Of a stretch of 64,000 nucleotides of DNA, positions 1 to 22,922 are shown piece by piece. Under the pieces are notes generated by a model. The model did no database searches. It saw only the letters and a list, made by a program, of their open reading frames with translations, and was not told the origin of the DNA. Every line of letters begins with the position of its first letter. Position 1 is the first letter of the stretch. Location: the NCBI RefSeq assembly GCF_054482595.1, contig NZ_CM137008.1. One strand, written 5' to 3'. Made by a program: the position numbers and the translations under genes.

Positions 1-27
1 AAAACCTCATCTTTTAATATCAGTTAA

Positions 28-297
28 TTATTCAGCTTCACCGAAGCGGTCGCGAAATAAGTCGGTGAGAGTCTGTATGGCCTCGTTTTCATCATCACCG
101 TCGCAGCGTATTTCCACCGTTTTTCCGCCTTTTATTCCGGCGCGCATAATATTCATCATGCTGGTGGCATTAATATCATTACCCTCATAGTGCAGCGTCA
201 CTTTACAGCTATATTTTTTGGCGGCTTTCGCCAGACAGGCCGCCGGACGTGCATGCAGGCCAGTACTGTTTCTGACCTCCACGGTTTTATTCAACAT
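28..297 (-). CDS. HPr-like PTS phosphocarrier protein (89 aa)
   Basis: ORF with the HPr phospho-His signature GLHARPA near residue 15; ATG at 297 preceded by GGGAGG; overlaps the stop of the upstream kinase gene by 11 nt, so co-transcribed. Confidence 0.8.
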   Translation of the reverse strand: MLNKTVEVRNSTGLHARPAACLAKAAKKYSCKVTLHYEGNDINATSMMNIMRAGIKGGKTVEIRCDGDDENEAIQTLTDLFRDRFGEAE

Positions 298-1795
298 AGT
301 GTTCCTCCCGATGATGTAATGGCATCACGCCTTCTTGTTGTAATTTCAACTGATACCAGCTTTTCCATTTGTGCTGATAACGCTGTAATTGATGGTATCT
401 CGCCCGATTCGGTAACAAACGTTGGGCTATAGCGACTGGCGGCGGTGGAATATCCGGTGCGGCGGTTAATAATGCTCCGACAGAAACCGCCTCGTTAAAT
501 GCAATTGCTTCAACCGGACGCTGTAAAATATCCGCCTTTAATTGCAGCCAAAGAGGATTATGGGTTGCCGGACCGATCACTTTTAACGCGCTGGTGCCAG
601 GCACGTTAAAACAGGCGAAGCAGTTGGCAAATTCCATGGTTAATCCCAGTGATACGCTGGCAATTAACATGTCGATACTTAACGTATCGCCAAGCCCATA
701 AAATAATCCACGGGTATGGCGATTTTTATAGGGCGAACCCGAACCGCGAAGATGTGGAATAAAGACGGGAATGTCATCGAGCAACCAATTCCCCGCCAGA
801 TAATCAGCATGTCCGCGAGTAAGTGATGCGGCGATCTCCTCATCGGTTAGCCGGAACGTGTTGCGCAGCCACTCCAGCGCGAAACCGCCCACGGGCAGCG
901 ACGCAAACAGGGTGAACTGGTTGGCAAGTGAGTAACAGCCGTTTGCCAGCTTGTCACGTTTAGCCTGTTCATCCAGCGTCGGTTGTGTATCCAGTTGCAG
1001 AATGCCTTCCGTGGTCCCCGTCGAGTTAAGGATATCGCCTGGCATCATCTGCAACGCTCGCGCACCCACCATATGGTCATGTCCGGCCAGCGTCACGCTG
1101 ACCGGTTGCGAGAACCCAAGCGTCTTGCAAAGTGACTCGCTGACCCATCCGGCGTGCTCGCCTGGCTGCACCAATGGCGCAAATGCCGTACAGGGAACGT
1201 GTAACAACGCCGCCGCTTTCGCTGACCATTCGCCTTTGCGCACGTCCAGACACAGCGTGCGGCTGGCTAAGGTGATATCCGTGCGCTGTTCGCCAGTCAG
1301 CCGCCAGAGCAGCACTTCCGGCGCATGTAGCCAGCGCAAGCTGCGGCGATTACGCAGCGGGTAATGTTCCAGCAACCAGCGCATTTTGAAGGCAGAGTAA
1401 TTACTGTGTAGTGGTAGACCGCAGATGTCATAAAGTGCCGCACTGTCTGCCTCGCTAAGCGTTGCCAGATACTCTTCACCGCGACGGTCATACCATGCCA
1501 GCATTGGCGTCAGGATCTCGCCATGCTCGTCAAGGAACACGCCTGATTCGCCAAAACTGGCAATGCTGATCCGTCTGACTGGCAGCGGCGAAGCGGCGTT
1601 CAGTTGCGCTATCGCCTGGCGGACCTCCTGCCAGAGGGCGTCGATATCGAAATCGACATCGCCCTGTGGGGAGATCTGCTTTGCCGTCACGAATTTATGC
1701 GCGCCCAACGTCGTTGCGTCCAGGCAGGAAAAGCAGGTGACTTTGCAATTGGTGGTGCCAATATCGATAACGATAGCTGCGCTGTTATCAGGCAT
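287..1795 (-). CDS. FGGY-family carbohydrate kinase (xylulokinase/ribulokinase-like, 502 aa)
   Basis: N-terminal IDIGTTNCK motif typical of FGGY kinases; length typical of the family; start overlaps the stop of the upstream IIC gene. Confidence 0.8.
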   Translation of the reverse strand: MPDNSAAIVIDIGTTNCKVTCFSCLDATTLGAHKFVTAKQISPQGDVDFDIDALWQEVRQAIAQLNAASPLPVRRISIASFGESGVFLDEHGEILTPMLAWYDRRGEEYLATLSEADSAALYDICGLPLHSNYSAFKMRWLLEHYPLRNRRSLRWLHAPEVLLWRLTGEQRTDITLASRTLCLDVRKGEWSAKAAALLHVPCTAFAPLVQPGEHAGWVSESLCKTLGFSQPVSVTLAGHDHMVGARALQMMPGDILNSTGTTEGILQLDTQPTLDEQAKRDKLANGCYSLANQFTLFASLPVGGFALEWLRNTFRLTDEEIAASLTRGHADYLAGNWLLDDIPVFIPHLRGSGSPYKNRHTRGLFYGLGDTLSIDMLIASVSLGLTMEFANCFACFNVPGTSALKVIGPATHNPLWLQLKADILQRPVEAIAFNEAVSVGALLTAAPDIPPPPVAIAQRLLPNRARYHQLQRYQHKWKSWYQLKLQQEGVMPLHHREEHYVE

Positions 1796-3146
1796 AAACC
1801 GTGCTCCGCGTCATTCGGAAAATGCCATACAGTACCAGGGCGATAACCGGCACCAGACCAATGGCGATGATATTGCCGTTGAAGATTTCCAGCAGCCAGA
1901 AGCGGAACGGGTTACCGCCATCAAGGAAACTGGAAACCTGGCCGCTGGAGCCTTCGGCAAATTTGAAGTTAACGTCTTTCGCCATGCCGGTAATAAACGG
2001 TGCGATTTTAGTCGCAATCCACAGGTCGGCAATAATCACCGGGATCGCCGCCAGAACGGTGCGGAAAATATTGCCACGGCTGGCTAAAGCAATCATCGAC
2101 GCCATTACCGCCAGGTTGGCAAGGTCGCCAAGTGGCAGGACTTCATTACCTGGGAGGACAAACGCGATAAAGACCGAGATTGGCGTTAGCAGCAGGGCGG
2201 TGGAGATAATCGCCGGGTTACCTACGGCAACGGCGATATCCAGTCCGATATAGAGATCGTCACGGTCAGGGTATTTGGCATTGAGATACTTTTTAATAGC
2301 TTCAGACAGCGGTAATAAACCTTCCATCAGGATGCGTACCATGCGTGGCAGGATGAACATCACACCGCCAATGCTGATGCCAAGCAGCAATACTTTTTTG
2401 AAATCGTATCCGGCAATTACGCCGAGCAGAATGCCCAGAATGGTGCCAACCATCATCGGTTCACCGAAGATGCCAAACTTTTTCTGTACGGTTTCCGGGT
2501 CGATATGAATACGATTGAGGCCAGGGATATGGTCGATGATTTTGTCGACCAGCAGACCGACCGGGAAGAACACCACCGAAGAGAGCGTCGGCAATGAGAT
2601 CCCTTCCAGGCCAAAGTATTTTTGTACCAGTGGCGCAGACCAATCGGCGAGTTTAAGTACTACCACCGCAGCAATCGCCGCCGCCAGCAAACCAAAAAAC
2701 AGGCTGCCGGTGCTGTAATAAACCAGCGTACCAGCAAGGGCAAAATGCCAGTAGTTCCACATATCTACGTCAACGGTGCGGGTTTTATTTAACGCCAGCA
2801 TCGCCACGTTAATCAGAATGGTCAGGGGAATAACAAACGGGGCAATTGGCGAACCCCATGTAATAGCGGAAAGCGGCGGCCAGCCTAAATCTACCACCGG
2901 TAAATTAATTCCGGTGCGTTCAACCATCGCCTGGGCCGCTGGCCCGACATTGCTGGTCAGAATATCGAAAATGGCATAAATACCGACAAAACCAATGCCG
3001 ACTGTTAATGACGAACGTAAGGCTTTAGCGGGTTTTACTTTAAAACAGAGAGCAAGAATAAATAACACCAACGGCAACATTACCGTCGGGCCAAATCCCA
3101 ATATATATTGCACAATATTATAGAGGGTATGCGCGATATCGTTCAT
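1788..3146 (-). CDS. PTS EIIC component, galactitol (Gat) family
   Basis: Polytopic membrane protein with GatC-like sequence (LGFGPTVMLP, GEPMMVG, NLFRT); chosen start is ATG at 3146 (MNDIAH) with AAGAGG 7 nt upstream; the ORF track begins 30 nt further upstream. Confidence 0.8.
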   Translation of the reverse strand: MNDIAHTLYNIVQYILGFGPTVMLPLVLFILALCFKVKPAKALRSSLTVGIGFVGIYAIFDILTSNVGPAAQAMVERTGINLPVVDLGWPPLSAITWGSPIAPFVIPLTILINVAMLALNKTRTVDVDMWNYWHFALAGTLVYYSTGSLFFGLLAAAIAAVVVLKLADWSAPLVQKYFGLEGISLPTLSSVVFFPVGLLVDKIIDHIPGLNRIHIDPETVQKKFGIFGEPMMVGTILGILLGVIAGYDFKKVLLLGISIGGVMFILPRMVRILMEGLLPLSEAIKKYLNAKYPDRDDLYIGLDIAVAVGNPAIISTALLLTPISVFIAFVLPGNEVLPLGDLANLAVMASMIALASRGNIFRTVLAAIPVIIADLWIATKIAPFITGMAKDVNFKFAEGSSGQVSSFLDGGNPFRFWLLEIFNGNIIAIGLVPVIALVLYGIFRMTRSTVYA

Positions 3147-3222
3147 AATAAACCTCTTTTTCAGGCGAGAGCGCACCTCGCGTTAGCGCCTGATGGAGTG
3201 GGTTGAAATTAATTATTATTAA

Positions 3223-3504
3223 TTACTTTTTAAGGATCGAAACAATTTGCGCCAGTACTTTCTCTTCGCCAATACCGGTAATAATAGGCAAGCCGTTAAC
3301 CACCGGGACGTCGAGTTCATAAGGCACTTTAGTCGTTGAGACTACCAGTGCTACGCCGTCAGTATTTCCAGGTAAAGAGGCAACGTTGGTTTGGGAATAA
3401 TTGACGTTAAGACCTTGCTCTTTGCAATATTCCATGACTTTTTCTGTTACCGCCGTGGATGTGGCAATACCCGTGGCGCAGACAAATAAAATGGTTTGAC
3501 TCAT
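3223..3504 (-). CDS. PTS EIIB component, galactitol-type (93 aa)
   Basis: Small protein with N-terminal active-site Cys context ILFVCATGIATS typical of GatB-like IIB domains; 4-nt overlap with the IIA gene stop. Confidence 0.75.
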   Translation of the reverse strand: MSQTILFVCATGIATSTAVTEKVMEYCKEQGLNVNYSQTNVASLPGNTDGVALVVSTTKVPYELDVPVVNGLPIITGIGEEKVLAQIVSILKK

Positions 3505-3974
3505 ATTTCACCTCGTTCTTTCATTTTGTTTAAGATTACTGTGTGTATTTCTGTTGTTTCCATCGTAAGCAGGGCTTGCATAAAGGGCGTATCCTGAATC
3601 ATTTCCATAATCCAGCCCAGGGCATTTAATTGTTTGTTACTTTCGCTTAAGGCGAGCAAAAAAATCACCCTGACAGGTACGGGGTCAGGATCGCCGCCCA
3701 TATCGGCAAACTCTACCGGTTCCGGCAGGATGCCGACGGCAATTGCATTGTGCCTGACATGTTTATGGTCCGTGTGTGGAATAGCGACGCACGGTGGTTC
3801 GGTAGGCAGCCCCGTTGGGTACGTCGCCTCACGTTTCAGTACGTGATCGGCAAAGTCAGGGACCACCAGCTCGGCGGCAACCAACGGTTGCGCTAACTGA
3901 CGGATGATCTGTTCAACGCTTAACCCTGCCGGAAGTCGTTGAATATAATTTTCCTGAAACTGTATGCCTTGCAT
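3501..3974 (-). CDS. PTS EIIA component (type-2, mannitol/fructose-like, 157 aa)
   Basis: Size and His-containing core (AIPHTDH) consistent with the EIIA-2 family; first gene after the regulator. Confidence 0.7.
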   Translation of the reverse strand: MQGIQFQENYIQRLPAGLSVEQIIRQLAQPLVAAELVVPDFADHVLKREATYPTGLPTEPPCVAIPHTDHKHVRHNAIAVGILPEPVEFADMGGDPDPVPVRVIFLLALSESNKQLNALGWIMEMIQDTPFMQALLTMETTEIHTVILNKMKERGEI

Positions 3975-3998
3975 TTTATTCCTCTTAAAAAAGTGTAC

Positions 3999-4745
3999 TT
4001 AACTCACTTCCCGCCGTTGCAGCACGGTGCCAAGATAATATTTATTTCCTTTTAACCAGACGTTGCCAAACTCAACGGGTAATCCTCGGGAGAAAAAGAC
4101 TAACTGCTCCAGATGCAAAACGGGTGCATCTTCACTGATATCTAAAAAATGACCGCGTTCATTACCAATTAATCGCGCGGCATAGCGACTTTCCGAGTAA
4201 CGAATTTTTCTTTGCGACAAACTTTCTATTGTTGGAAATAAATTGTGTTGATTAAAATCGATTTCCGCGATGCCGGGGCATAGCTCAATATTGATACGGT
4301 TCTCTATCAGCATCGCTTTTTCATCACCAATCGAACGTAAACGTTCAAGGTAAAGAATATCCTGACCGGGCGTTATTCTTAATTTCTCTGCTACATAACG
4401 ATTAGCCGGTTCAATCCGTGACGTAATAACTTCAGTGGTAAAATGTATTTTCTGGCTTTCCAGCGATTCCGCGAATGACAATAATCCTTCACCTAACGGA
4501 TAGGCCACGTTCTCTTTTTTGACAAATGTTCCCTTGCCCTGGACCTGAATCAACACGCCTTCTTTTACCAGTTGGGCGACCGCTTTTTTAACGGTTCCCC
4601 GACTGACTTCCAGCATATCCATAATCTGGTATTCCGAAGGGATGCGATCGTCTTCCACCAGATCTCCGGTATAAATACTTTCTCTTATCCACTCCACCAC
4701 TTGTTGATAGAGCGGTATTTGTGACGACTTACTTAATGATTTCAT
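3999..4745 (-). CDS. GntR/HutC-family transcriptional regulator
   Basis: N-terminal winged-HTH (IPSEYQIMDMLEVSRGTVKKAVAQLVKEG) plus C-terminal effector-binding region; start chosen at ATG 4745 (MKSLSK) with AGGTG upstream rather than the GTG at 4754. Confidence 0.75.
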   Translation of the reverse strand: MKSLSKSSQIPLYQQVVEWIRESIYTGDLVEDDRIPSEYQIMDMLEVSRGTVKKAVAQLVKEGVLIQVQGKGTFVKKENVAYPLGEGLLSFAESLESQKIHFTTEVITSRIEPANRYVAEKLRITPGQDILYLERLRSIGDEKAMLIENRINIELCPGIAEIDFNQHNLFPTIESLSQRKIRYSESRYAARLIGNERGHFLDISEDAPVLHLEQLVFFSRGLPVEFGNVWLKGNKYYLGTVLQRREVS

Positions 4746-4768
4746 GGCGCGCACCTGAACATTTACAG

Positions 4769-4792
4769 TTGTCTATGGACAATCATGGACAA
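4769..4792. promoter_or_regulatory. Candidate operator: palindrome TTGTCTATGGACAA overlapping two ATGGACAA direct repeats
   Basis: Seen directly 25-45 bp upstream of the GntR-family regulator start; GT-N-AC palindromes are the usual HutC/GntR operator form; function inferred. Confidence 0.35.
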
Positions 4793-4943
4793 CTTCAAGC
4801 GTATAGTAGGTGAACAGGCGAAAAAGAGGATCGAAGCGTCTCACATTTTGAGGGACCAAATCGTGATCAAAAAAATGTGATGGAAGTCGAAGTTTGGCAG
4901 GAATTTACTGCGCCGTGAGGAAATAACGGCGCGTTGGGAGGTG

Positions 4944-7747
<2,804 letters not shown>

Positions 7748-10965: not shown

Positions 10966-12195
10966 TCAGGGCCAACGTTTAATGATGATGGATGTATTAA
11001 TGCCGCCAAAGGCAAAGTTGTTACTCTGCAAAAACTCACAATCAACCTTGCGGGCTTCATGCATGATGTAATCCAGCGCGCCACAATTCGGGTCTGGTTT
11101 ATTCAGGTTTAGCGTAGGCGCAAACCAACCTTCGCGCATCATTTGCAGACTCATCCAGGCTTCGAGCGCGCCACAGGCACCAAGCGTATGACCAAAATAA
11201 CTTTTCAGCGAGGAGAGCGGCACATTATCACCGTAAATGGTTGCTGTCGCCAGACTTTCTGCCATATCACCGCGATCGGTCGCCGTACCATGCGCTGAAA
11301 TATAGCCGATATCTTGTGCGCTTAACCCGGCGATTTTCAGCGATTGCTCCATACAATACTGCATGGTTTCGCGCTGCGGCTGGGTAATATGTGCCGCGTC
11401 GCAGTTAGTCGCAAAGCCGACGATTTCACCGTAAATGGTCGCGCCGCGCGCTTTGGCGTGCTCCAGTTCTTCGAGAATGAGCGTACCTGCGCCTTCACCA
11501 ATCACCAGCCCGTCGCGGTTTTCATCGAACGGTGAAGGTGTGGTTTTCGGCGCATCATTGTGCTGGCTGGTGGCGAAAAGCGTATCAAATACCGCTGCTT
11601 CTGAAGGACATAACTCTTCGGCACCACCAGCAACCATCACCGTTTGATAACCGTGGCGAATGGCTTCCCACGCATAACCGATTGCCTGGCTGCCGGAAGT
11701 ACAGGCGCTGGAGGTTGGGATCACCCGCCCGCGCAGGCCGAAAAAGAGGCCAGTATTAACGGCGGTGGTGTGCGGCATCATCTGCACATAGGTGGTGCCA
11801 GTGATGTTATTGGTGTGCTTTTCCGTCAGCATGGTGGCGAACTCGCTTACCGGGCCGGTACTGCCGGTCGATGAACCGTACGCAATGCCCGTTTCGCCGC
11901 TGGTTAATATCGGATCGCCAATCAACCCTGCCTGCTCTAACGCCAGCTCGCTGGCACGGGTCGACATTTGCGACACGCGGCCCATCGCACGGATACGCTT
12001 GCGGGTGTAGTGCTCCGGTAGCGTGAAATCATCAACAGGCGCGCCAAGCAGGGTGTGCAGCCCGTCGTAGACCTGCCACTCCGGCATTTTGCGCACCGCA
12101 TTTTCATACGCCAGTAAGCGTGCAGAAACGTCCTGCCAGTTTTCACCAAAGGCAGTCACGCCACCCATTCCTGTAATCACTACGCGACGTGTCAT
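10966..12195 (-). CDS. apeR: Beta-ketoacyl-ACP synthase (APE cluster KS)
   Basis: 409-aa KAS I/II-like protein with active-site Cys context (PTSSACTSGS) and the His pair; the ape letter is assigned by position in the 18-gene order as I recall it. Confidence 0.85.
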   Translation of the reverse strand: MTRRVVITGMGGVTAFGENWQDVSARLLAYENAVRKMPEWQVYDGLHTLLGAPVDDFTLPEHYTRKRIRAMGRVSQMSTRASELALEQAGLIGDPILTSGETGIAYGSSTGSTGPVSEFATMLTEKHTNNITGTTYVQMMPHTTAVNTGLFFGLRGRVIPTSSACTSGSQAIGYAWEAIRHGYQTVMVAGGAEELCPSEAAVFDTLFATSQHNDAPKTTPSPFDENRDGLVIGEGAGTLILEELEHAKARGATIYGEIVGFATNCDAAHITQPQRETMQYCMEQSLKIAGLSAQDIGYISAHGTATDRGDMAESLATATIYGDNVPLSSLKSYFGHTLGACGALEAWMSLQMMREGWFAPTLNLNKPDPNCGALDYIMHEARKVDCEFLQSNNFAFGGINTSIIIKRWP

Positions 12196-12923
12196 AACAT
12201 CCCTCCGTTGATGGAAATAACCTGGCGGGTGACGTAACCCGCAATATCAGACATTAAATAACTGGCAAGCCCGGCAACTTCTTCCGCCTGGCCCATACGT
12301 TTCATGGGGATCATCGACATTGCCTCTTTCAGAGCGCTCTCTTCCATTTCGATCATCCCGGTATCAATAAGCCCTGGCGCGATGCAATTGACGGTGATTT
12401 TGCGCTTTGCGAGTTCGATAGCCAGCGCTTTTGTTGCGCCGATAATTCCGGCTTTGGCAGCGCTGTAATTCACCTGGCCGCGATTGCCCATTACGCCGGA
12501 AACCGAGGACAGCGTGATGATGCGCCCACCCTGGCGCGCGCCGATCATTGGCATAATGCACGGCTGAATGACGTTGTAGAAACTGTCGAGATTGGTGTGG
12601 ATCACCGCATCCCAGTCGTCATCGCTTAAAGCCGGAAAAGCGGCATCGCGGGCGATCCCGGCGTTACTGACCACGCCGTACCAGGCACCGTGTTGCGCGA
12701 TCTCATGCTCCAGCACTTCCCGACACTGTTCGCGGTTTGCGACGTCGAAACTGAGCAAACGCCCGTTACCCCCGTTGGCGACAATGGCATTCAGCGTTTC
12801 CTGAGCGCCTGTGGCGTCACGGTGATAGTGAACGCCAATGTTAAAGCCGTCTGCCGCCAGTTGGCAGGCGATGGCGCGACCAATGCCTTTGCTGGCACCA
12901 GTAACCAGAACTGAACGACTCAT
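12192..12923 (-). CDS. apeQ: 3-oxoacyl-ACP reductase (SDR family, FabG-like)
   Basis: Rossmann motif TGASKGIGRA and SDR catalytic YSAAK; 4-nt overlap with the neighbouring gene. Confidence 0.85.
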   Translation of the reverse strand: MSRSVLVTGASKGIGRAIACQLAADGFNIGVHYHRDATGAQETLNAIVANGGNGRLLSFDVANREQCREVLEHEIAQHGAWYGVVSNAGIARDAAFPALSDDDWDAVIHTNLDSFYNVIQPCIMPMIGARQGGRIITLSSVSGVMGNRGQVNYSAAKAGIIGATKALAIELAKRKITVNCIAPGLIDTGMIEMEESALKEAMSMIPMKRMGQAEEVAGLASYLMSDIAGYVTRQVISINGGML

Positions 12924-13387
12924 CAGGACGCTCCTTGTTGAAACAGGGTGGTAAGTTCTTCCGCGGTCGGCTGGAAGGTGTTAATGCGGCCCGTCGCCTC
13001 GCCGTCGTTGATGCTGCACTCAAAACTGCCGAAGCGATCGTCCTGCATCAGCAGTTTGACGGTAATGGTCAGCGTCTGGCCTGCGGGCAGAATGCCAGCG
13101 GCGCAAAGCAATTCACGCGCGCCCAGTATCATCCCTAACTCAATACTGTTTTTGCCCTGCTGGTGGCGATGCCAGCCAGACCAGACGCCGACGGTTTGCG
13201 CCATCAGTTCAAGGGCAAACCAGCCAGGGAGATTGCCGTCCGGGTCGAGAAACGGTGCCAGTACGCCACTGGGCGAAACCGTCACGCGGCACACCGCGCT
13301 GTCATCGCTGACGCTCACCACGTCTTCCAGCAGTAACATGGGCGCGTCGTGGGGCAGATAAGCGCCGGGGGATAAATAGTGGCTCAC
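12923..13387 (-). CDS. apeP: Hotdog-fold 3-hydroxyacyl-ACP dehydratase
   Basis: 154-aa hotdog-fold protein; partners with the second dehydratase (apeI) in APE clusters. Confidence 0.75.
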   Translation of the reverse strand: MSHYLSPGAYLPHDAPMLLLEDVVSVSDDSAVCRVTVSPSGVLAPFLDPDGNLPGWFALELMAQTVGVWSGWHRHQQGKNSIELGMILGARELLCAAGILPAGQTLTITVKLLMQDDRFGSFECSINDGEATGRINTFQPTAEELTTLFQQGAS

Positions 13388-14562
13388 GAAACCCTCCCGA
13401 GCAGAATGCTGGCGTTATTGCCGCCAAAGGCGAAGGAATTGGACAGGATCACCGGACGTGCCAGCGGCTGCGGTTTTTCGATAATGCCGCAGGGTGGCAG
13501 CGTGGGATCGCGTGGCGACAGGCTGAAATCTTGGGCGGGCAGCGGTAAATCACGCTGTAAGATCAACATACTGATTGCTGCTTCGGTAATGCCCGCCGCG
13601 CCCAGCGTGTGGCCGGTCAAATGTTTGGTGGAGCTGCACGGTACGCGTTCGCCAAACAGGGCGTTAACCACCATCGATTCAATCTGGTCGTTGAGTTGCG
13701 TGGCGGTGCCGTGCAGGTTGATATAGCCGACGTCATCTGGCGTAAGCTGCGCATCGGTCAGTGCCTGATTAATGGCGCGGATCGCCCCTTCGCCCTGCGG
13801 ATGCGGGGCCGAAATATGGTAAGCGTCACTCGATTCACCAACGCCCAGCAATGCGATGGGCTGCGGTTCGCGGGTTAATAACATCAGCCCCGCGCCTTCG
13901 CCAATGGTGATACCTGCGCGGTCACGACCGAACGGCTGACATAAAGTTGGCGAGAGCGATTCGAGGCTGTGAAAACCGTTAATCGGCATCCGGCTCAGGG
14001 TGTCTGCGCCACCCACAATGGCGGCATCGACCAGCCCCGTCTCGATAAGCCTGCGCCCGCTGATCATCGCTCTGGCGCTGGAGGAGCAGGCGGTTGAAAG
14101 GGTATAGGCCGGGCCGTCGAGCGCCAGCCAGTGGCTGAGAAAACGCGACGGATCGCCAAGTTCCTGTTGTGCGTAGTGCCATGTGGTGCTCGGCAGCCCG
14201 TGGGTGCGCAGGTTAACGTGCGTGTCGCCTTCATGCAGGCCGGAGGTGCTGGTGCCAAGTACAATCGCGATGCGCTCGCGACCATATTTCGCTATAGCGT
14301 CATCAACCTGCGGCTGGAGCTGCGCCAGCGCCGCCAGCAGGATCTGATTGTTGCGCGAGCGATGCGCAGCGAATTTTTCCGGGATAAGCGGAAGCTCGCC
14401 ATCCACGCCAGCCAGGACCGCCTGCGGATGCCCCTGCAACCAGCCTGCGCGTGGGCGCATTCCGGGGGCGACACCGCGAGCCAGGTTGGCTGCGATTTCG
14501 TCAAGATTATTTCCCAGGGCGTTGATCATGCCGACGGCGGAAATATAAATCATATCAGTCAC
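13384..14562 (-). CDS. apeO: Beta-ketoacyl-ACP synthase (APE cluster KS)
   Basis: 392-aa KS-family protein with conserved Cys (LSTACSSSARA) and C-terminal SNSFAFGGNNA. Confidence 0.85.
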   Translation of the reverse strand: MTDMIYISAVGMINALGNNLDEIAANLARGVAPGMRPRAGWLQGHPQAVLAGVDGELPLIPEKFAAHRSRNNQILLAALAQLQPQVDDAIAKYGRERIAIVLGTSTSGLHEGDTHVNLRTHGLPSTTWHYAQQELGDPSRFLSHWLALDGPAYTLSTACSSSARAMISGRRLIETGLVDAAIVGGADTLSRMPINGFHSLESLSPTLCQPFGRDRAGITIGEGAGLMLLTREPQPIALLGVGESSDAYHISAPHPQGEGAIRAINQALTDAQLTPDDVGYINLHGTATQLNDQIESMVVNALFGERVPCSSTKHLTGHTLGAAGITEAAISMLILQRDLPLPAQDFSLSPRDPTLPPCGIIEKPQPLARPVILSNSFAFGGNNASILLGRVS

Positions 14563-15139
14563 CTAAGTATTGAATGGTGATGTGGTATTTAAAGACATGC
14601 TGTTCAATGCTGATTGGCACGCGTTTGCCCTTGCGATTCAGATAGGTGATTTCCGTGACCAGCTTGCCGCTGGCGTTACGCAGCTCGCGTTTGTCACCGT
14701 TGTCGCGAAGTGTCCAGCCAGTGGGAAGTTGCGGTTGCCAGGCGCTAATCGGCCAGTGGCTGAGCATTACGTCAGCCAGCACCTGACTTGCGGGCGGCAA
14801 CTGTGGGACGACGATGGATTGCTCGGCGCGTAGCCCTTGCGCATCGTAGGTCAACAGAAACAGGCGAATGCCGACCGACGACAGCCCGGCAAGGGTGATT
14901 TTCTGGTCGTCGGCGTTAAGCATCACTAACAGCGACTGGGTTTTGCCGTTGAAGCTGCCGGTCAACAGTTGCTGGGAATTGACGGCGGGTGAAATCCCTG
15001 GTGCCGGCAGCGTGATGCGCGTGCCAGGTTGCAGCCACGCCTGCGGGCGGCCTTCCTGTTCCGGTTGCGAGTGGCTACAGCCGGTGAGGATAAGCGTAGC
15101 GGTCAGGGCGAGCGCTCGCCAGAATGTGGGTTTGATCAT
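14555..15139 (-). CDS. apeN: Lipoprotein, APE-cluster associated
   Basis: Signal peptide with lipobox LTGC; conserved position between the KS and MMPL genes. Confidence 0.7.
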   Translation of the reverse strand: MIKPTFWRALALTATLILTGCSHSQPEQEGRPQAWLQPGTRITLPAPGISPAVNSQQLLTGSFNGKTQSLLVMLNADDQKITLAGLSSVGIRLFLLTYDAQGLRAEQSIVVPQLPPASQVLADVMLSHWPISAWQPQLPTGWTLRDNGDKRELRNASGKLVTEITYLNRKGKRVPISIEQHVFKYHITIQYLGD

Positions 15140-17454
15140 TTTTTTGTTCTCTTTTTATCGGGCATCGCCAGCGGCGAAAGCAGGAAGGCGGTGAAAATAC
15201 CGCTCACCAGCACAATGCCAAAACTGCTGATGGCCTGGGTGGCGCTGAATACCAGCATTCCCAGCGTCAGCAAGGTGGTGAGCATTGCCAGCGTGATCGC
15301 CAGTAGCGAAGTTAATGGTGTACCGCGCGGATTACTGAAAAACAGCGTGTAGTTGATGCCGATGCCAAGCACCAGCACCAGCGCCAGCAGCGAAAAGAGA
15401 TTCACCGCCTGCCCGCTCATCGCCAGCACCGCCAGACCACAACCCAGCGAAAGCACCGAAGGTACAAGGCTGATAAGCCCTTTGCGCCAGCCGAGACGGG
15501 CCACTGCGCCGCAGGCAATCACCGCCAGCGCCACCAGCAACAAGCCGGTTAAGACATAACGGTAAAGCGCGAACAACTCATCAAAGGTGCTTTTGCGATC
15601 AACCCAGGCAATGCCGCAAGGGTAATATGTGGCGATTTCCTGCATCAACGCGCTACTTTTAACCCCTTCAACCGGCACCAGTACGCCGCTTTCGCCGTTT
15701 TCCAGCGTCAGCCACAGCAGACGCCAGCCTTCACTGGCGGGGCTTGCCAGCCATTCATCAACGTTCACTGGCATGGCGTTGAGATCCGGGTTCACTGCCG
15801 TCAGCCCGGCATTTTGCAGCGCTTTTGTTACTGTCGGGGCCGCCGTTTTCAGCAGTTGTAAATCTTCCTCCTGCCGCGCAAGGGAGTTCAGCGGAATGGT
15901 GCGGTAGTTGCTGATAAGCCCCTCTTTTTTCGCATACTCAAGTGAGGCGGTATATTTCTCCAGTCGCCGCAATGTTTGCTGTGGCGAATCGCCGTAAACC
16001 ACAAACCATTTTTGATCGACGCTTTGTCCGGTCAGGGCGGTAATGGCTTTCTCCTGGGTCAGAATATGCTGCGGCAGCGCCTGTAACTGCGAGATATCGT
16101 CATCGACGCGCAGCATTGACATCCCCGCCAGCGAAAACAGCGCCAGCGCGACGGGCAGACCCAGCGACAGTTTTTTATTGCGCCGCCACGCTGCCAGCCA
16201 GCGCAGCATCAGCGCCATCGCCGGAACCGGACGCACCGGCAGGCCACGGCACAGCCACGGATGCCAGAACAGGACGGTCAGACAGGAGGCGCTCAACCCG
16301 ACGGCGGCAAAAATCGCCATCTGGCGAATGCCGGGGAAGGGGGCGAGCATCATAATCAGATATGCCGCCACGGTGGTGAGCAGCGCCAGCAGCAGGGCAT
16401 TGCGTACTTTCGCCAGGCTTTGCCACGGCGAAACGTCGTTGCCGTGCACCATCCGCTCGGTGAGATAATAGAGCGTGTAGTCAGCGGAAATGCCGATAAC
16501 GCTCATGCTCATCACCAGCGTCATCAGGTGTAATTCACCGAAAATCAATAAAGTGGCGACCGTTCCCGCCAGCGCGCCGATGCCGATGGAAATCACGCAA
16601 AGCAGCAACGGGCGCAAAGAGCGGAACACCGCCACAATCAGCAATATCACCCCCAGCAGCGTTGCCACGCCCAGGGTTGAGATATCCTGCTTCGCCTGTT
16701 GGCTGGCGTAATCGCTGTAAAACACCGTGCCGCGCGAAAGCAGCTGCGCCTGCGGGTAACGCGTTTTCAGATCCTTTTCCAGCGTATTCAGGGTCGTGAT
16801 GAGCTGGTGGGTTTGCTGCATATCAAACGACGATCCCGCCAGTTCACCGTGCAGCAGATACCAGTAGTTGCCCTGGGGATCCTGCGTCACCAGCCAGCCG
16901 TCCATCAGCCGCAAACGCTGGCCGTTTTTCGCCATCGCCAGCTGCGAGCCGCGCATTAACATCAGCGGATCGTTTTGCAGCTCCTTGCCGCTTACCCCGG
17001 AGAACGCAGAATAAAGCTGGGAGAGGATCCACTGCGCCTGCGCTTCGCCGCCGTTTTGCAGGCGCGCGCGGGTGTCGGGGTCAATCAGGCCGTTGCGGTG
17101 CTGCCAGAAAAACGCTCCCCACGCTTGCTGGCTGGCGGCATCCATTGGCCCTTTAACGTCGCCGAGCGCAGCGGATTTTTGCAGCAGCGTCAGCCACTCC
17201 TGAGCGACCCTGGGATTAGCCTCTTTACCGGGGCTGACCAGCCACACCAGTTGGCGGTCCAGACGCTGCATAAAGCCGTCATTCAGCGCTGGGGGAATAT
17301 CGCCCATAGCCTGTTTGGGTAACATAGCCAGCACGCTACTGTTCAGCCGTGATTGCGGCAGCAGGATCAGCAACGCCGCCGCCATGACCAGGCAGACTAG
17401 CCCCCATAACAGCGCGGGGCGTTTACTGGGCGGCAAAACGTTGGCGTTCGTCAT
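15136..17454 (-). CDS. apeM: MMPL/RND-family membrane exporter
   Basis: 772-aa protein with two hydrophobic bundles separated by periplasmic domains, typical of MMPL transporters. Confidence 0.8.
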   Translation of the reverse strand: MTNANVLPPSKRPALLWGLVCLVMAAALLILLPQSRLNSSVLAMLPKQAMGDIPPALNDGFMQRLDRQLVWLVSPGKEANPRVAQEWLTLLQKSAALGDVKGPMDAASQQAWGAFFWQHRNGLIDPDTRARLQNGGEAQAQWILSQLYSAFSGVSGKELQNDPLMLMRGSQLAMAKNGQRLRLMDGWLVTQDPQGNYWYLLHGELAGSSFDMQQTHQLITTLNTLEKDLKTRYPQAQLLSRGTVFYSDYASQQAKQDISTLGVATLLGVILLIVAVFRSLRPLLLCVISIGIGALAGTVATLLIFGELHLMTLVMSMSVIGISADYTLYYLTERMVHGNDVSPWQSLAKVRNALLLALLTTVAAYLIMMLAPFPGIRQMAIFAAVGLSASCLTVLFWHPWLCRGLPVRPVPAMALMLRWLAAWRRNKKLSLGLPVALALFSLAGMSMLRVDDDISQLQALPQHILTQEKAITALTGQSVDQKWFVVYGDSPQQTLRRLEKYTASLEYAKKEGLISNYRTIPLNSLARQEEDLQLLKTAAPTVTKALQNAGLTAVNPDLNAMPVNVDEWLASPASEGWRLLWLTLENGESGVLVPVEGVKSSALMQEIATYYPCGIAWVDRKSTFDELFALYRYVLTGLLLVALAVIACGAVARLGWRKGLISLVPSVLSLGCGLAVLAMSGQAVNLFSLLALVLVLGIGINYTLFFSNPRGTPLTSLLAITLAMLTTLLTLGMLVFSATQAISSFGIVLVSGIFTAFLLSPLAMPDKKRTKK

Positions 17455-18028
17455 CGGTCAGTTGCGCTGGCGTCAGTTGATGTTGGGTAAGAGCAATATC
17501 GGTGCGATCGCCCTGTTTATCATTAAGTTGAATGCTCTCCAGATAGGTTTTCCCGGCGAGATCGATGGTGTTGAAAATTTTATCCAGCGGCGTGGTGGTC
17601 GGCGTCAGGCGCAGCGTCCAGCGGCCTTCGCCTTTGTCAGCAAATTCGACGCGGAAGTTTTGTTCCAGCACTTTGCGATCGGCCTGGAACAGCGCGCGCA
17701 GCAGGTGGTTAAACTGGAACATCTGCGGGTTGTTTTCTGCCGTGATGATTTGCGGCGGCTGACCGTTGATCACCTGCACCATGCGTTTATCATCCAGCAA
17801 TAGCTGCATGGGGAACGGTGAGGTTTGATCCCACAATAACCCCTGGTCGCGGGCGATCAACATCTGACCCTGAGATCGCAGCGGCTGCGGCAGATCTTTA
17901 ATCGTCCGGGTTTGATCAAAATGGGCGCGGATCACCGGTTGTTCGGTAAAGCGTTGCTGAAGATCGTCCAGGGTCAGGGCGCTCACAAACGGGCTAATCA
18001 GCAGCGCCAGCAGCGGTAAAAATTTCAT
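17423..18028 (-). CDS. apeL: LolA-like outer-membrane lipoprotein carrier
   Basis: 201-aa secreted protein with signal peptide (MKFLPLLALLISPFVSA) and LolA-fold-like length/composition. Confidence 0.7.
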   Translation of the reverse strand: MKFLPLLALLISPFVSALTLDDLQQRFTEQPVIRAHFDQTRTIKDLPQPLRSQGQMLIARDQGLLWDQTSPFPMQLLLDDKRMVQVINGQPPQIITAENNPQMFQFNHLLRALFQADRKVLEQNFRVEFADKGEGRWTLRLTPTTTPLDKIFNTIDLAGKTYLESIQLNDKQGDRTDIALTQHQLTPAQLTDDERQRFAAQ

Positions 18029-18447
18029 GGTTTGACTCCCATGCGTTCAAACAGAATATCGGGGCTGACAAAGCACAGTTCGCGACTTTGCTCGTCGACC
18101 GCGACCTGAATGGTGTATCCGGTGGTGGCGCGTTTGCCCGTTTCGGCATCGAAAATCTGATAGCCAATCCGCAGACGGTTTTCGAACTCTTCGATATGCG
18201 CACGCACGCGGATGCGTTGCTCAAAGGTGAGGGCGTGGCGATATTTCACCCGCGCATCGACCACTGGCCACAAATAACCGGACTCTTTCATCTGCCGATA
18301 GCCGTAATTGAACTGGTTGAGCAGCGCCTCGCGGGCCACTTCAAAGTAGCGAAAATAGTTACCGTGCCAGGCCACGCCCATCATATCGACGTCGTGAAAG
18401 GGAATGGTCAGCTCGACTTCAGCGGTAAATCGGGGATCGTTAAGCAC
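18025..18447 (-). CDS. apeK: Hotdog-fold acyl thioesterase (4HBT-like)
   Basis: 140-aa protein resembling the YbgC/4-hydroxybenzoyl-CoA thioesterase family. Confidence 0.75.
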   Translation of the reverse strand: MLNDPRFTAEVELTIPFHDVDMMGVAWHGNYFRYFEVAREALLNQFNYGYRQMKESGYLWPVVDARVKYRHALTFEQRIRVRAHIEEFENRLRIGYQIFDAETGKRATTGYTIQVAVDEQSRELCFVSPDILFERMGVKP

Positions 18448-18450
18448 CCT

Positions 18451-20127
18451 TTACTCCTTGTCCTGAATTTCCGGCAGTTGCCAGAAATCGAAAAAATTAA
18501 ACCAGTCGAGGGGCGACTGGAGCGCGTAATGTTCCAGACGCGCGGCGTAGTGGTCGATAGCGTTTTGCAGCGCCTGCTGGCGTTCGCCACGCGGCAGTTG
18601 CAGCGGGTCGGCAAAGCTTTCGCAGTGAATATGCAGCTTGCCGTGCTGGCGTAGGGCGAAAATCAGATTCACTGGGCAGCGCAAAATAGAGGCGAGAATA
18701 AACGGCCCCTGTGGGAAGGGCGCAGGCTGGCCCATAAACGGACTCCAGCAGACGCGCCAGTCGCCGCCGCGTTGCGGGGTGACGGCGATGCGGTCACCGA
18801 CAATCGCCACCCATTCGCCGTTATCCAGCTTCTCTTTCAGCAGGATGGCGGTTTCTGGGCCGATATCTGTTACCGGCATCAGGTTAATGCCTGCCTGAGG
18901 AGCCATCTCCTGCATTATCTGTTTAAAGCGTTGGGCGTTTTCGCTAAACACCAGCGCGTTAATGGTTTTGTAGCCCTGAATTTTTGCCAGCGCCCGGCAC
19001 ACTTCCACATCGCCAAGATGCGAGGCCAGCAGCAATTTGCCGCGCGGATCGCGGACGTCAAGCGCCGCTTCTGCGCCTGGCGCAAACAGCACATCACGCC
19101 CCAGTTGTAGCTCGCCGCGCCAGCTGGCGATTTTGTCGAGCATGGCATTACCGAAACGTAGAAAGTGCTGATAGCTGTTGAGTTTTGCCGCCTGTGGTTG
19201 ATGCTGTCGTACACGGGCGAGCCAGTCTTGCGACGCTTTGCGCGCACGAGAAGCAGTGAGCCAGTAGACGCCCACCACCGGGTAAAGCAGCGCGCTAAAC
19301 GCCGTTCTTCCCAGCAGACGCCAGACCAGCAGCATCAGGCGCATTCCCCATAATCCTTTCACTTCACTCTGCCGCGCCCAGTGGCTGGAAGAGCGGCGCA
19401 TCAGCAGTGAAGGAATACGCGGTAACATGCCGAAAAATAGACGCGTGTGCATGAGCGAGATGCGGACGTTATCTTTCAGGGCATCAAAATGCGAAAGCCC
19501 GTCCAGTGGATAGGTGACGCGGGTCGGCACGAAATAGCTGGTGTTTCCCTGCCAGTAGAGGCGCACCATCACTTCAGTGTCGAAATCCATCCGCTTGCCG
19601 ATGGTGGCGTGTTTTGCCAGTTGCAGCGTTGGCGCAACCGGATAAACGCGAAAGCCGCACATGCTGTCTTTCAGTTGCAGGGAGAGCGTTTCGATCCATA
19701 CCCAGACGTGGGTGACCCAGCGCCCGTAAAGCCGTGAGCGGGGGATGGAGTCATCGTAAATTGGCTGGCCGGAGATCAGCGCCGCAGGGTGTTGTTCAGC
19801 GACTGCCAGCAGTTTGGGGATATCTTCAATCGCATGTTGACCGTCAGCATCCACCTGCACTGCATGGCTGAACCCTGCGTCTGCCGCTGCCTGTAAGCCA
19901 CGCATCACTGCCGCGCCTTTACCTGCGTTTTCTGCTAAGCGAATTAAGGTCACGCCAGGCTGTTCGCTAACCAGATTATCCAGTTGCTGTTGCGTGGCGG
20001 CATCGCTGCCGTCGTCCACCACAATACAGGGGAGATTAAATGGCTTAAGACGCGCCAGCACGCCCGGCATCATCGCGCCGTGGTTATAGCAGGGGATCAA
20101 CACGCAGGGAGAAAAGTTTACCGACAT
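18451..20127 (-). CDS. apeJ: Fusion of family-2 glycosyltransferase and LpxL/HtrB-like lipid acyltransferase
   Basis: N-terminus has the GT2 signature (IPCYN...VVDDGSD); C-terminal half resembles lauroyl/myristoyl lipid A acyltransferases. Confidence 0.75.
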   Translation of the reverse strand: MSVNFSPCVLIPCYNHGAMMPGVLARLKPFNLPCIVVDDGSDAATQQQLDNLVSEQPGVTLIRLAENAGKGAAVMRGLQAAADAGFSHAVQVDADGQHAIEDIPKLLAVAEQHPAALISGQPIYDDSIPRSRLYGRWVTHVWVWIETLSLQLKDSMCGFRVYPVAPTLQLAKHATIGKRMDFDTEVMVRLYWQGNTSYFVPTRVTYPLDGLSHFDALKDNVRISLMHTRLFFGMLPRIPSLLMRRSSSHWARQSEVKGLWGMRLMLLVWRLLGRTAFSALLYPVVGVYWLTASRARKASQDWLARVRQHQPQAAKLNSYQHFLRFGNAMLDKIASWRGELQLGRDVLFAPGAEAALDVRDPRGKLLLASHLGDVEVCRALAKIQGYKTINALVFSENAQRFKQIMQEMAPQAGINLMPVTDIGPETAILLKEKLDNGEWVAIVGDRIAVTPQRGGDWRVCWSPFMGQPAPFPQGPFILASILRCPVNLIFALRQHGKLHIHCESFADPLQLPRGERQQALQNAIDHYAARLEHYALQSPLDWFNFFDFWQLPEIQDKE

Positions 20128-20471
20128 AGGCGGATCTTCCCGCTACTGGCGGTGTGGCGGGCGTCACCGTCGTGACGCTGATAGCTAAAGCTCAGAATCT
20201 GGCGTTCTTCCTGCCAGTTAAGCGCGAGCGTGACGCGGTTTTCCGGCAGCAACGGAGACTGGAATTTTATGTTCTGAATGGAGTGAAAACGCCAGCCAGG
20301 CGCGAGCAGATTGAGCGCGTAGCTCATCGCCCAGTCGATTTGCGCAACTCCTGGGAGTAATGGTTGCACGGCAAAATGACCGCGAAACCAGAACAGATCC
20401 GCCCTGAGATGCAGAACAATTTCAAGGTGATTCGTTTGTGCCTGATGGCGCTCGATTTCATGGGGCTTCAT
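20118..20471 (-). CDS. apeI: Hotdog-fold dehydratase (FabA/FabZ-like)
   Basis: FabZ-like core (FRGHFAVQPLLPGV); start placed at ATG 20471 (MKPHEIERH) with AGGAG 7 nt upstream; the ORF track begins at a GTG 30 nt further upstream. Confidence 0.75.
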   Translation of the reverse strand: MKPHEIERHQAQTNHLEIVLHLRADLFWFRGHFAVQPLLPGVAQIDWAMSYALNLLAPGWRFHSIQNIKFQSPLLPENRVTLALNWQEERQILSFSYQRHDGDARHTASSGKIRLCR

Positions 20472-21819: not shown

Positions 21820-22397
21820 GCGCGATCTCTTTTCATCACCTGACGGCGCACCAGCCATTCACCAGCCATTAATGTTCCCATCAACAAATAAGCAATCATG
21901 CCGTTCCAGGCGGTCCATAACGACATATCGGCATAAAGCGCGGTAAAGAGGGCAATTCCACCGTTAATGATGAAAAAGCCGCACCAGATTTGCGTGACGT
22001 GGCGGGTATAGCGCACGCCCTTTTCCGGGAGGTCTGGCTCCTGCAACCGCGCCAGCCGCTCAACTATCGGCATTGCCGACCACAGCGAACCGCCAAAAAC
22101 CGCCAGCATGACCGCGTTAACCACTACCGGGTAAAACAGCAGTAGCTGGTGCGTTTTCAACATAAAGCTGGCGACACATAATGCGATGCCCACGACAGCG
22201 ACGAGTTGCGTGACGGCTTGTAAAGGCCCCGCCTGGCGACGGGTCTGGCGCAGACGCAACAAAAGCAGCAACGCCATTAGCGGTAACAGCCAGTGCAGGC
22301 CGTTATGCGCTAAGCCAAACCAAATCACAAACGGCCAGGCGAGCAGCAATAATCCAGTCAGCAGCTTAATCATCGGTAGCGAGCGAATGCCCGACAT
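21816..22397 (-). CDS. apeG: Integral membrane protein, APE-cluster associated
   Basis: 193-aa hydrophobic protein with several predicted TM helices; conserved position. Confidence 0.6.
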   Translation of the reverse strand: MSGIRSLPMIKLLTGLLLLAWPFVIWFGLAHNGLHWLLPLMALLLLLRLRQTRRQAGPLQAVTQLVAVVGIALCVASFMLKTHQLLLFYPVVVNAVMLAVFGGSLWSAMPIVERLARLQEPDLPEKGVRYTRHVTQIWCGFFIINGGIALFTALYADMSLWTAWNGMIAYLLMGTLMAGEWLVRRQVMKRDRA

Positions 22398-22401
22398 CAG
22401 A

Positions 22402-22653
22402 TCAGGCTTCTTGTAGCAGGCGTTCTACAGCCTCGACGACATCCTGGACTGTACGCACGGCTTTAAACTCTTCCGGCTTGATTTTCTTACCGGTTTTCTT
22501 TTGCAGGTGCACAATCATGTCAACGGCGTCGATGCTGTCCAGTTCCAGATCTTCGTACAGGCGCGCTTCAGGTTTGATGTCCTGCGGATCGATTTCAAAC
22601 AGCTTAACCAGCAGGGCTGAGACTTCCTGATAGACGGTTTGTTGTTCTGTCAT
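22402..22653 (-). CDS. apeF: Acyl carrier protein
   Basis: 83-aa acidic protein with phosphopantetheine attachment motif LELDSIDAVDM. Confidence 0.85.
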   Translation of the reverse strand: MTEQQTVYQEVSALLVKLFEIDPQDIKPEARLYEDLELDSIDAVDMIVHLQKKTGKKIKPEEFKAVRTVQDVVEAVERLLQEA

Positions 22654-22664
22654 GATGGCTTTCC

Positions 22665-22922
22665 TCAGGCACGTTGCGCAGCAATGAAAGAGGCCAGAGT
22701 GGCGACGGAGAAAAAGTGCTGACGCATCTCTTCGCTTTCCGCAGAGAGCACGATGCCGTACTCATTTTTTACTGCCAGTCCCAGTTCCAGGGCATCGATA
22801 GAGTCCAGCCCTAAACCGTCGCCAAACAGCGGCGCGTCGGTATCGATATCATCAGGCGTCAACTCGTCCAGATTGAGGGTGCTGATGATGAGGTTTTTAA
22901 TTTCCAGATAAAGCGCTTGCAT
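22665..22922 (-). CDS. apeE: Acyl carrier protein
   Basis: 85-aa protein with attachment motif LGLDSIDALEL; tandem with a second ACP. Confidence 0.85.
   Translation of the reverse strand: MQALYLEIKNLIISTLNLDELTPDDIDTDAPLFGDGLGLDSIDALELGLAVKNEYGIVLSAESEEMRQHFFSVATLASFIAAQRA

Follow-up and report, generated by a model that had tools for sequence, protein, structure and literature searches.

Why should an operon with the genes of an entire phosphotransferase system (PTS), which phosphorylates its sugar during uptake, encode a sugar kinase as well? This question is raised by a minus-strand operon downstream of the core gene nikR, at the beginning of a 64,000-nucleotide stretch of Escherichia coli DNA (contig NZ_CM137008.1 of assembly GCF_054482595.1; this whole stretch is called the window in the following). 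The operon combines the components EIIA, EIIB and EIIC of a galactitol (Gat)-family PTS with an HPr paralogue, a GntR/HutC-type regulator and a carbohydrate kinase of the FGGY family. The answer that is favoured here, with modest confidence, is that this is an accessory catabolic operon in which a sugar is taken up by the PTS, receives a second phosphate from the FGGY kinase, and is cleaved as a bisphosphate by an aldolase. The substrate would be a ketose-type sugar, probably a rare hexulose and possibly a heptulose, or the matching polyol in those relatives that carry a dehydrogenase in addition.

The aldolase lies just outside the window. It had been proposed in an initial annotation, made from the letters of the window, that the operon extends beyond the window start, and in E. 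coli XH990, a urine isolate that is 100% identical to the window and served as reference beyond it, a seventh gene is indeed present there. Its ATG is positioned 5 nt beyond window base 1, and it encodes a class II aldolase of 286 amino acids (locus L001 of XH990, 11136-11996, minus strand). The protein reaches 558 bits (cut-off 364) with NF005943/PRK07998, a model named only "class II aldolase", and 220 bits (cut-off 216) with TIGR00167, which places it among the class II (PF01116) aldolases, and the zinc-binding and catalytic motifs HLDH, VHG and HGG are conserved in an alignment with AgaY (1GVF), GatY and YdjI. It is not assigned to the aldolases specific for fructose or tagatose bisphosphate (FbaA, GatY, KbaY), as it remains at 239 of 383 bits for GatY and at 181 of 542 bits for KbaY, and the DPR motif is replaced.

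For the six genes inside the window, the identities and the order given by the initial annotation are supported by hidden Markov model matches for each family, and the PTS and FGGY domains, the lack of which would have spoken against that annotation, were found in the same way. None of the PTS proteins, nor the kinase or the regulator, reaches an equivalog cut-off of the NCBIfam profiles, and their assignments are thus assignments to families only. EIIC matches the EIIC-GAT model TIGR00827 with 476 bits (E = 8.5e-143), below the GatC-level cut-off of 542, and by sequence comparison is about 40% identical to SgcC as well as to GatC; EIIB reaches 58 bits with a GatB-like model, and EIIA 58 and 50 bits with GatA/FruA-like models. 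With an EIIC-GAT domain and separate EIIB cysteine and EIIA histidine, the transporter belongs to the Gat family (TC 4.A.5), and PF03611, PF02302 and PF00359 are recorded in orthologous loci. It is not a galactitol-specific GatABC system, since EIIC stays under the cut-off and the seven-gene operon has neither a dehydrogenase nor GatZ. That the operon has its own HPr holds as well (103 bits with TIGR01003, cut-off 47.9; GLHARPA at residues 13-19). This HPr is an orthologue neither of PtsH (51 versus 153 bits) nor of NPr (49 versus 119 bits), it reaches 78 bits with another HPr equivalog model, NF010352/PRK13780, and one of its serines aligns with Ser46 of PtsH. By motif inspection and alignment, the phosphorelay residues are intact in HPr (His15), EIIA (His67) and EIIB (Cys9).

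The association of PTS, kinase and aldolase is not a peculiarity of E. coli. A Gat-type EIIABC, an FGGY kinase and a PF01116 aldolase occur together in all 13 kinase-clade loci examined, which come from E. coli, Salmonella, two Pantoea species, Gibbsiella, two metagenomic Enterobacterales-like contigs, Enterococcus, Listeria, Clostridium, Pectinatus and Mitsuokella, and in each of them (13/13) the kinase gene directly follows the gene of the Gat-family EIIC. Eight modules, termed type 1, contain no further enzyme (E. coli, Salmonella, Pantoea, Enterococcus, Listeria, Clostridium, Pectinatus, Mitsuokella), and in all eight the EIIC and kinase genes overlap by 1-26 nt. In E. coli this overlap amounts to 8 nt, next to overlaps of 4 nt between EIIA and EIIB and of 11 nt between kinase and HPr. 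The aldolase gene precedes that of EIIA in Enterococcus, Listeria, Clostridium and Pectinatus and follows that of the kinase in the type 1 Enterobacterales and in Mitsuokella, and an HPr gene is present, at varying positions, only in E. coli, Salmonella, both Pantoea species and Gibbsiella among these loci.

The modules of Pantoea rwandensis, Gibbsiella and the two metagenomic contigs, termed type 2, have gained one or two Zn-dependent dehydrogenases, one of which is closest to the galactitol-1-phosphate dehydrogenase GatD (238 bits), and also a gene of the SurE or His_Phos_1 (histidine-phosphatase, mutase-like) family. With their dehydrogenases they resemble the galactitol route, now equipped with a dedicated kinase, which suggests from gene content that type 2 represents a polyol-specific sister pathway. 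In these modules EIIC and kinase genes do not overlap and are separated by 90-210 nt (loci L011, 5706-14596; L022, 5582-13476; L023 and L024, 4079-11650).

In the route that is proposed for the operon, phosphoenolpyruvate, Enzyme I and the HPr of the island would pass a phosphate to His67 of EIIA and then to Cys9 of EIIB, and the Gat-family EIIC would bring in the sugar as a monophosphate. The FGGY kinase, by its gene overlap presumably coupled translationally to EIIC, would attach a second phosphate to the opposite end, for which C1 is the most plausible position, as with FucK and RhaB, and the class II aldolase would split the bisphosphate into dihydroxyacetone phosphate (DHAP) and a phosphorylated aldehyde, which in the case of a hexulose would be glyceraldehyde 3-phosphate (GAP). 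The HutC-type regulator would repress its own operon at the TTGTCCAT repeats, and its release would probably be triggered by the sugar phosphate. In the type 2 modules, as polyol versions, the dehydrogenase would make the ketose phosphate first. The order of the steps, the substrate of the kinase, the identity of the sugar and the mechanism of repression are what we infer here, and because eight modules hold no other enzyme, two phosphorylations and one aldol cleavage would be the simplest complete route into central metabolism. The initial annotation had taken the combination of a PTS with an FGGY kinase to imply either a second phosphorylation or a non-PTS intermediate such as a pentulose. 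The first of these options has gained from the aldolase gene and from the conservation of the trio across phyla, whereas a pentulose is a misfit, because its bisphosphate would give DHAP and glycolaldehyde phosphate, which is no standard central intermediate.

The kinase itself is a regular member of its family, as PF00370 and PF02782 are found on a 97%-identical cluster representative, the phosphate motifs DIGTTN and NSTGTTEG are kept, and GHDH carries the catalytic aspartate in the alignment with GlpK, FucK and RhaB. None of the named FGGY specificities is reached (XylB 145/380, GlpK 127/590 and FucK 120/471 bits, each as score/cut-off), and the identity to GlpK, XylB, FucK, RhaB, LyxK and YgcE is only 18-23%, whereas proteins of Citrobacter, Salmonella, Pantoea, Sodalis and Cedecea are 60-79% and proteins of Enterococcus, Listeria, Clostridium, Pectinatus and Mitsuokella 34-40% identical. 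No characterised member of this clade of FGGY kinases was found. GHDH shows no variation among the clade members (116/116). The motifs [FW]G..G, HD (GHD) and GT.E are common to the island kinase and the ketose-1-kinases FucK and RhaB, and the position of the glycerol-binding Arg83 of GlpK is occupied by glycine in the clade. Because of these kept FucK/RhaB-type motifs and the glycine at the Arg83 position, the alignments favour a pocket like that of ketose kinases over one like that of triose or glycerol kinases, a distinction that does not reveal the substrate. There is no histidine in the aligned activation loop of the kinase that would correspond to the HPr-phosphorylated histidine of GlpK.

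Several points weigh against two phosphorylations followed by cleavage. We know of no FGGY kinase with demonstrated activity on a sugar that carries a phosphate already, and 115 of the 116 clade members have G-P instead of the usual G-G in the adenosine motif. In aldolases of fructose or tagatose bisphosphate, the arginine of the DPR motif binds the distal (C6) phosphate (Arg331 of FbaA, Arg257 of AgaY); this canonical arginine is absent from the module aldolases, which have NL(A/I)(R/K)V instead, and it is likewise absent from YdjI, an aldolase of a monophosphate (ketose 1-phosphate). Judged from the alignment, the missing DPR arginine is the main misfit with a canonical hexulose-1,6-bisphosphate as substrate. 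Also, the literature searched contains no growth, enzyme or binding data for the island.

The missing arginine, together with its parallel in YdjI, would agree with an aldolase that acts first. In this case the ketose 1-phosphate delivered by the PTS would be cleaved into DHAP and a free aldehyde such as glyceraldehyde, and the FGGY kinase would phosphorylate the fragment afterwards, in the style known for fructose 1-phosphate in the liver. The best matches of the kinase among solved structures are glycerol kinases (87 bits), and GlpK of E. coli accepts glyceraldehyde, both of which would fit with such a fragment as substrate. However, the glycine at the Arg83 position and the FucK/RhaB-like active-site motifs do not, and the strict adjacency and overlap of the EIIC and kinase genes points to a kinase that acts on the product of the transporter. 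Furthermore, a basic residue still stands one position away from the canonical arginine in 11 of 12 module aldolases (the exception is Mitsuokella with a glutamate), and the GatD-like dehydrogenase of the polyol variants would put the carbonyl far from the PTS phosphate, which then requires a kinase for C1. Cleavage before the second phosphorylation is thus considered somewhat unlikely.

It is also conceivable that the kinase does not act on a phosphorylated compound at all, and that it converts free intracellular sugar into the same monophosphate that the PTS produces and the aldolase cleaves. The free sugar could come from facilitated diffusion via EIIC, from dephosphorylation, or from the hydrolysis of a larger compound. 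Characterised FGGY kinases act on unphosphorylated sugars (PMC3245297 lists only such activities), and the phosphatase- or mutase-like gene (SurE or His_Phos_1) of the polyol-type variants would find a role in this arrangement. But a redundant enzyme would not be expected in 13 of 13 modules, nor would it be expected to be coupled to EIIC from Firmicutes to Enterobacterales, and in E. coli the kinase is under purifying selection, with a ratio of non-synonymous to synonymous divergence (dN/dS) of 0.06. Such a parallel entry is therefore regarded as rather improbable.

A second galactitol or D-tagatose system, redundant with gat or tag, is what the RefSeq label of the island EIIC ('PTS galactitol transporter subunit IIC') would imply, and it could be added that GatY and AgaY share 32-36% identity with the aldolase and that the reported tagatose-negative strains are K-12 (MG1655, BW25113), BL21(DE3) and W, of which MG1655 and W are free of the island. 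This is nevertheless very doubtful, as EIIC remains at 476 versus 542 bits and at about 40% identity to GatC, the module has no GatD and no GatZ, the kinase is of the FGGY family and not a PfkB-type TagK or PfkA, and the regulator is of the HutC type and not of the DeoR type.

The route with a kinase that phosphorylates the PTS product can be taken one step further. This protein may be the first FGGY kinase that is specific for a sugar phosphate, fed by a Gat-family EIIC in a PTS pathway of three steps that has not been described before, with a rare ketose as substrate, be it a rare hexulose or a heptulose of plants (sedoheptulose and mannoheptulose are examples); this is offered as a tentative possibility. 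In a more extreme version, an unusual phosphoryl donor could lie behind the G-P change in the adenosine motif and the dedicated HPr. Should the PTS product be the substrate of the kinase, the chemistry of FGGY enzymes would be extended, and a third, non-homologous type of ketose-phosphate kinase would stand beside PfkA and the PfkB-type enzymes.

The chromosomal site of the operon is a variable one. In XH990, a segment of 6.57 kb reaches from the stop codon of yhhJ to that of nikR, two convergent core genes at which homology with K-12 ends and resumes, and it contains only hicAB and the seven operon genes. At least three states of the site exist, which are an empty site (8 bp between the stop codons in MS20677), an Rhs element (K-12, O121 and strain 746; the order in K-12 is rhsB-yhhH-yrhC-yhhI), and the PTS island. 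The statement in the initial annotation that K-12 has rhsB at this position is thereby borne out, and the island is not there in K-12. Counted as complete E. coli genomes that carry at least 80% of window positions 1-5400, 1637 of 5426 genomes (~30%) possess the island, which agrees with the accessory status that had been assumed. The negative genomes match only nikR and nikE, from 4943-4946 on, and one genome has no match at all. A particular association with extraintestinal E. coli does not hold, as the island is present in O157:H7 (ECs4349-4355 in Sakai, Z4874-4880) and also in Z910. As already noted for the nikR side, no integrase or insertion sequence (IS) was seen, neither at this nor at the other junction, and no tRNA gene either, while no dedicated scan for flanking direct repeats was made; the site does not qualify as that of an integrase- or IS-mobilised island.

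Beyond the aldolase gene, a hairpin with a 9-bp stem is followed by the convergent hicAB toxin-antitoxin pair and then by yhhJ. The hicA/hicB pair (L001, 10455-11086) belongs to the variable segment in XH990 and O157:H7 and is absent from strain Ecol_743, and because the PTS island stands there without hicAB, the pair would have been added to this hot spot separately.

When XH990 is compared with Ecol_743, a synonymous divergence (dS) of 0.05-0.22 and a dN/dS of 0.02-0.21 are obtained for the island genes. In dS they are close to nikE and nikR (nikE: dS 0.19, dN/dS 0.06); between the alleles, the dS of the kinase gene is 0.21 versus 0.11 for EIIC. Since dS and dN/dS are much like those of nikE, the island is an old resident of the species that selection has maintained, and neither a recent insertion nor a decaying remnant. 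The G+C content forms a mosaic inside the operon, with 42-48% in the regulator, EIIA and EIIB genes and 55-59% in the kinase gene. That the operon is a silenced or decaying horizontally acquired remnant without present metabolic role in E. coli, for which one could quote the AT-rich regulator/EIIA/EIIB part and the H-NS repression of the Salmonella orthologue (PMC3604774), is highly improbable in view of seven intact open reading frames, the low dN/dS at a dS of up to 0.22, and published transcripts, which increase in the gut contents of cattle, depend on RpoS in stationary phase and, in Salmonella, are found in a chicken caecal community.

The positions of genes and non-coding elements are compiled in Table 1. 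The longest reading frame of EIIC would reach 3176, and the ATG at 3146 is preferred on the basis of RefSeq and a Shine-Dalgarno sequence. The intergenic region between nikR and the regulator gene measures 198 bp, and the EIIB-EIIC spacer 76 nt.

Table 1. Genes and candidate non-coding elements at the nikR end of the window (positions 1-5345)
Feature	Position	Strand	Characteristics
Spacer 3' of HPr gene	1-27	minus	holds GAGG Shine-Dalgarno of aldolase gene (gene seven)
HPr paralogue	28-297	minus	89 aa; GLHARPA phospho-histidine motif (His15), Ser46 aligned
FGGY-family carbohydrate kinase	287-1795	minus	502 aa; start overlaps EIIC stop by 8 nt
EIIC, galactitol (Gat) family PTS	1788-3146	minus	452 aa; TIGR00827 476 bits
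18-nt block CAGGCGCTAACGCGAGGT	3175-3192	minus	EIIB-EIIC spacer; identical in E. coli, Salmonella, Pantoea
EIIB	3223-3504	minus	93 aa; active-site Cys9 in VCATGIATS; GatB model 58 bits
EIIA, mannitol/fructose/galactitol type	3501-3974	minus	157 aa; VAIPH phospho-histidine motif, His67
GntR/HutC-subfamily regulator	3999-4745	minus	248 aa; first gene of the operon; AGGTG Shine-Dalgarno 7 nt before ATG
Operator-like repeats GTTGTCCATGATTGTCCATAGACAAC	4768-4793	minus	two direct TTGTCCAT units; second unit within imperfect palindrome TTGTCCATAGACAA
Candidate CRP half-site AAAATGTGA-N6-TCGAT	4828-4849	minus	TGTGA half kept in Salmonella and Pantoea
Hairpin GCGCCGT-N9-ACGGCGC	4910-4932	minus	7-bp G+C-rich stem just downstream of nikR; without T-tract
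nikR, core gene	4944-5345	minus	stop codon is the right-hand edge of the variable segment; NikR profile 235 bits

The regulator matches the HutC, PhnF, TreR and LSA1692 models with 100-122 bits over its full length, and its orthologues carry PF00392 and the UTRA domain PF07702, which makes it a member of the HutC subfamily, with a predicted operator immediately upstream of its gene. Repeats of the TTGTACAT type, TTGT(A/C)(C/T)AT about 10-11 nt apart, precede the module in 10 of 10 GntR-regulated loci (E. coli, Salmonella, Pantoea, Mitsuokella, Listeria, Enterococcus, Clostridium, Gibbsiella and the metagenomic loci), and in P. rwandensis and Gibbsiella, with genes divided between two units, they precede both. 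In the Salmonella and Pantoea loci, all three motif matches within 19.5 kb fall into the 120 nt or less upstream of the operon, and the motif is absent from the Pectinatus locus, where an Mga/PRD-type regulator replaces GntR. Because motif and GntR-type regulator co-vary across the loci, there is good comparative evidence that the HutC-type protein would control the operon from the predicted operator at 4768-4793. The conserved TGTGA half-site at 4828-4849 may be a CRP site. A scan for sigma-70 promoters and terminators gave nothing above chance and no match in the nikR-GntR intergenic region, and an Rfam search of window positions 1-5400 gave no match. The 18-nt block in the EIIB-EIIC spacer is identical in two E. 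coli alleles, Salmonella and Pantoea, within a spacer that has otherwise diverged; the block is distinct from the operator motif, has no match in Rfam, and shows no covariation in a consensus fold of the spacer.

At the other end of the intergenic region, the hairpin at 4910-4932 has a perfect stem, lies 12 nt past the nikR stop codon and is part of the island DNA and not of the core. It may terminate nikR transcription, and because it is in island DNA, nikR transcripts may have other 3' ends in strains in which the site is occupied differently.

Other accessory DNA is found further along the window. Between acpT and yhhT (~10970-26000) there is a large biosynthetic cluster for a lipid or an aryl-polyene-like compound, with ketosynthases, a chain-length factor, two acyl carrier proteins, FabG2, an ApeP-type dehydratase and an MMPL transporter, and further a LolA-like protein, a GT2 protein, an AMP-ligase and a methyltransferase. 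K-12, O121, MS20677 and strain 746 lack this cluster, and O157:H7 has it. A gene of the RecQ helicase family follows gntU (~62940-64000), which presumably is not the K-12 arrangement and may mark another accessory insertion.

The existence of the locus is not new, as it is already annotated (the Sakai annotation names the kinase 'fucK') and comparative papers have recorded it as an island whose specificity is not known. In EDL933, Z4875-77 and Z4879, termed simply "galactitol transporter" by the authors, were found up by 2-4 log2 units in the contents of the bovine rumen, small intestine and rectum in comparison with glucose medium (PMC6199705), and Z4874 has been found to be RpoS-dependent by a factor of ~60 in stationary phase (PMC2907692). 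The Salmonella island has been described in 2013 as AT-rich, H-NS-repressed, gained by the ancestor of subspecies enterica, and encoding a "complete PTS with unknown specificity" (PMC3604774), and STM3784 is activated by ArcA. As late as 2024, STM3780-85 were entered under "Unknown sugars", and genes of the island were expressed in a permissive chicken caecal community (PMC11000858). Searches by locus tag and keyword yielded only such mentions in transcriptome and genome-comparison work and no functional study, and in no paper found has a sugar substrate of the island or its orthologue been identified. Apparently new in the literature searched are the PTS-FGGY-aldolase trio as a fixed module over two phyla, its tight EIIC-kinase coupling, the conserved operator, and the possibility of an FGGY kinase that acts on a PTS product. 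If the proposed route is true, the pathway would be conserved from Firmicutes to Enterobacterales and present in O157:H7 and in Salmonella subspecies I. Once the sugar of the island is named, a nutrient niche that only some strains can use would be added for two major enteric pathogens. The locus is small and self-contained and has a clear candidate operator, which makes all this directly testable.

Among the known systems, the closest counterpart is the orthologous island of Salmonella, which the initial annotation had not recognised and which we take to be STM3779-3785, an assignment of our own that combines the island description in PMC3604774 with the LT2 annotation. The same seven families are encoded there (GntR+UTRA, EIIA_2, PTS_IIB, EIIC-GAT, FGGY, PF01116 and HPr), and Salmonella agrees with E. 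coli also in the EIIC/FGGY overlap of 8 nt, in the operator motif and in the 18-nt block. The kinases are 63% and the aldolases 89% identical. However, the order at the end is aldolase-HPr in Salmonella and HPr-aldolase in E. coli, and the chromosomal site and the neighbours differ.

Of the resemblance to sgc- or vpe-type loci, which the initial annotation had suggested, that to sgc turned out to be superficial, and that to vpe is probably superficial as well. The K-12 sgc locus (sgcXBCQAER) shares with the island EIIA, EIIB and an EIIC of the Gat family (40% identity) and is likewise a system without an assigned substrate, but it has no kinase, aldolase or HPr, possesses an epimerase, SgcQ, SgcX and a DeoR-type regulator instead, and lies at another locus. 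As to vpe, it would be set apart by its location, as it is reported next to deoK on a different island, in a separate region of the genome of uropathogenic E. coli (PMC5382810).

The gat system (gatYZABCD) likewise has a Gat-family EIIABC, with an EIIC of about 40% identity, and its ketose bisphosphate is cleaved by a class II aldolase to DHAP and GAP. It needs GatD and GatZ, obtains the second phosphate from the housekeeping enzyme PfkA (PMC9720028), and is controlled by a DeoR-type regulator. The island, in contrast, has neither a dehydrogenase nor GatZ, and it brings along its own FGGY kinase and HPr and a HutC-type regulator. The L-fucose and L-rhamnose pathways (FucK/FucA, RhaB/RhaD) share with the proposed route that an FGGY kinase phosphorylates C1 of a 2-ketose and that a metal-dependent aldolase produces DHAP. 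They differ in that 6-deoxy sugars are taken up by proton symport and only one phosphate is added, and the island kinase is only 23% identical to FucK. Also, FucA and RhaD belong to an aldolase family different from that of the island enzyme.

In its logic, the proposed route is like the PTS-dependent pathway by which Klebsiella oxytoca, Salmonella and Bacillus licheniformis degrade D-tagatose (TagTH, TagK, GatYZ). The components are others, as the tagatose transporter is of the fructose type and TagK is a PfkB-type and not an FGGY kinase, and the tagatose aldolase needs GatZ, unlike that of the island. A D-tagatose cluster of E. coli Nissle was considered as well and set aside, as it lies elsewhere, between accC and yhdT, and encodes an ABC transporter and kinases of the PfkB type (PMC9720028). 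In the tagatose pathway, the PTS delivers a ketose 1-phosphate, a dedicated kinase converts it to the 1,6-bisphosphate, and a class II aldolase carries out the cleavage (PMC9720028), which is the sequence of uptake, second phosphorylation and aldol cleavage that would take place in the island pathway as well.

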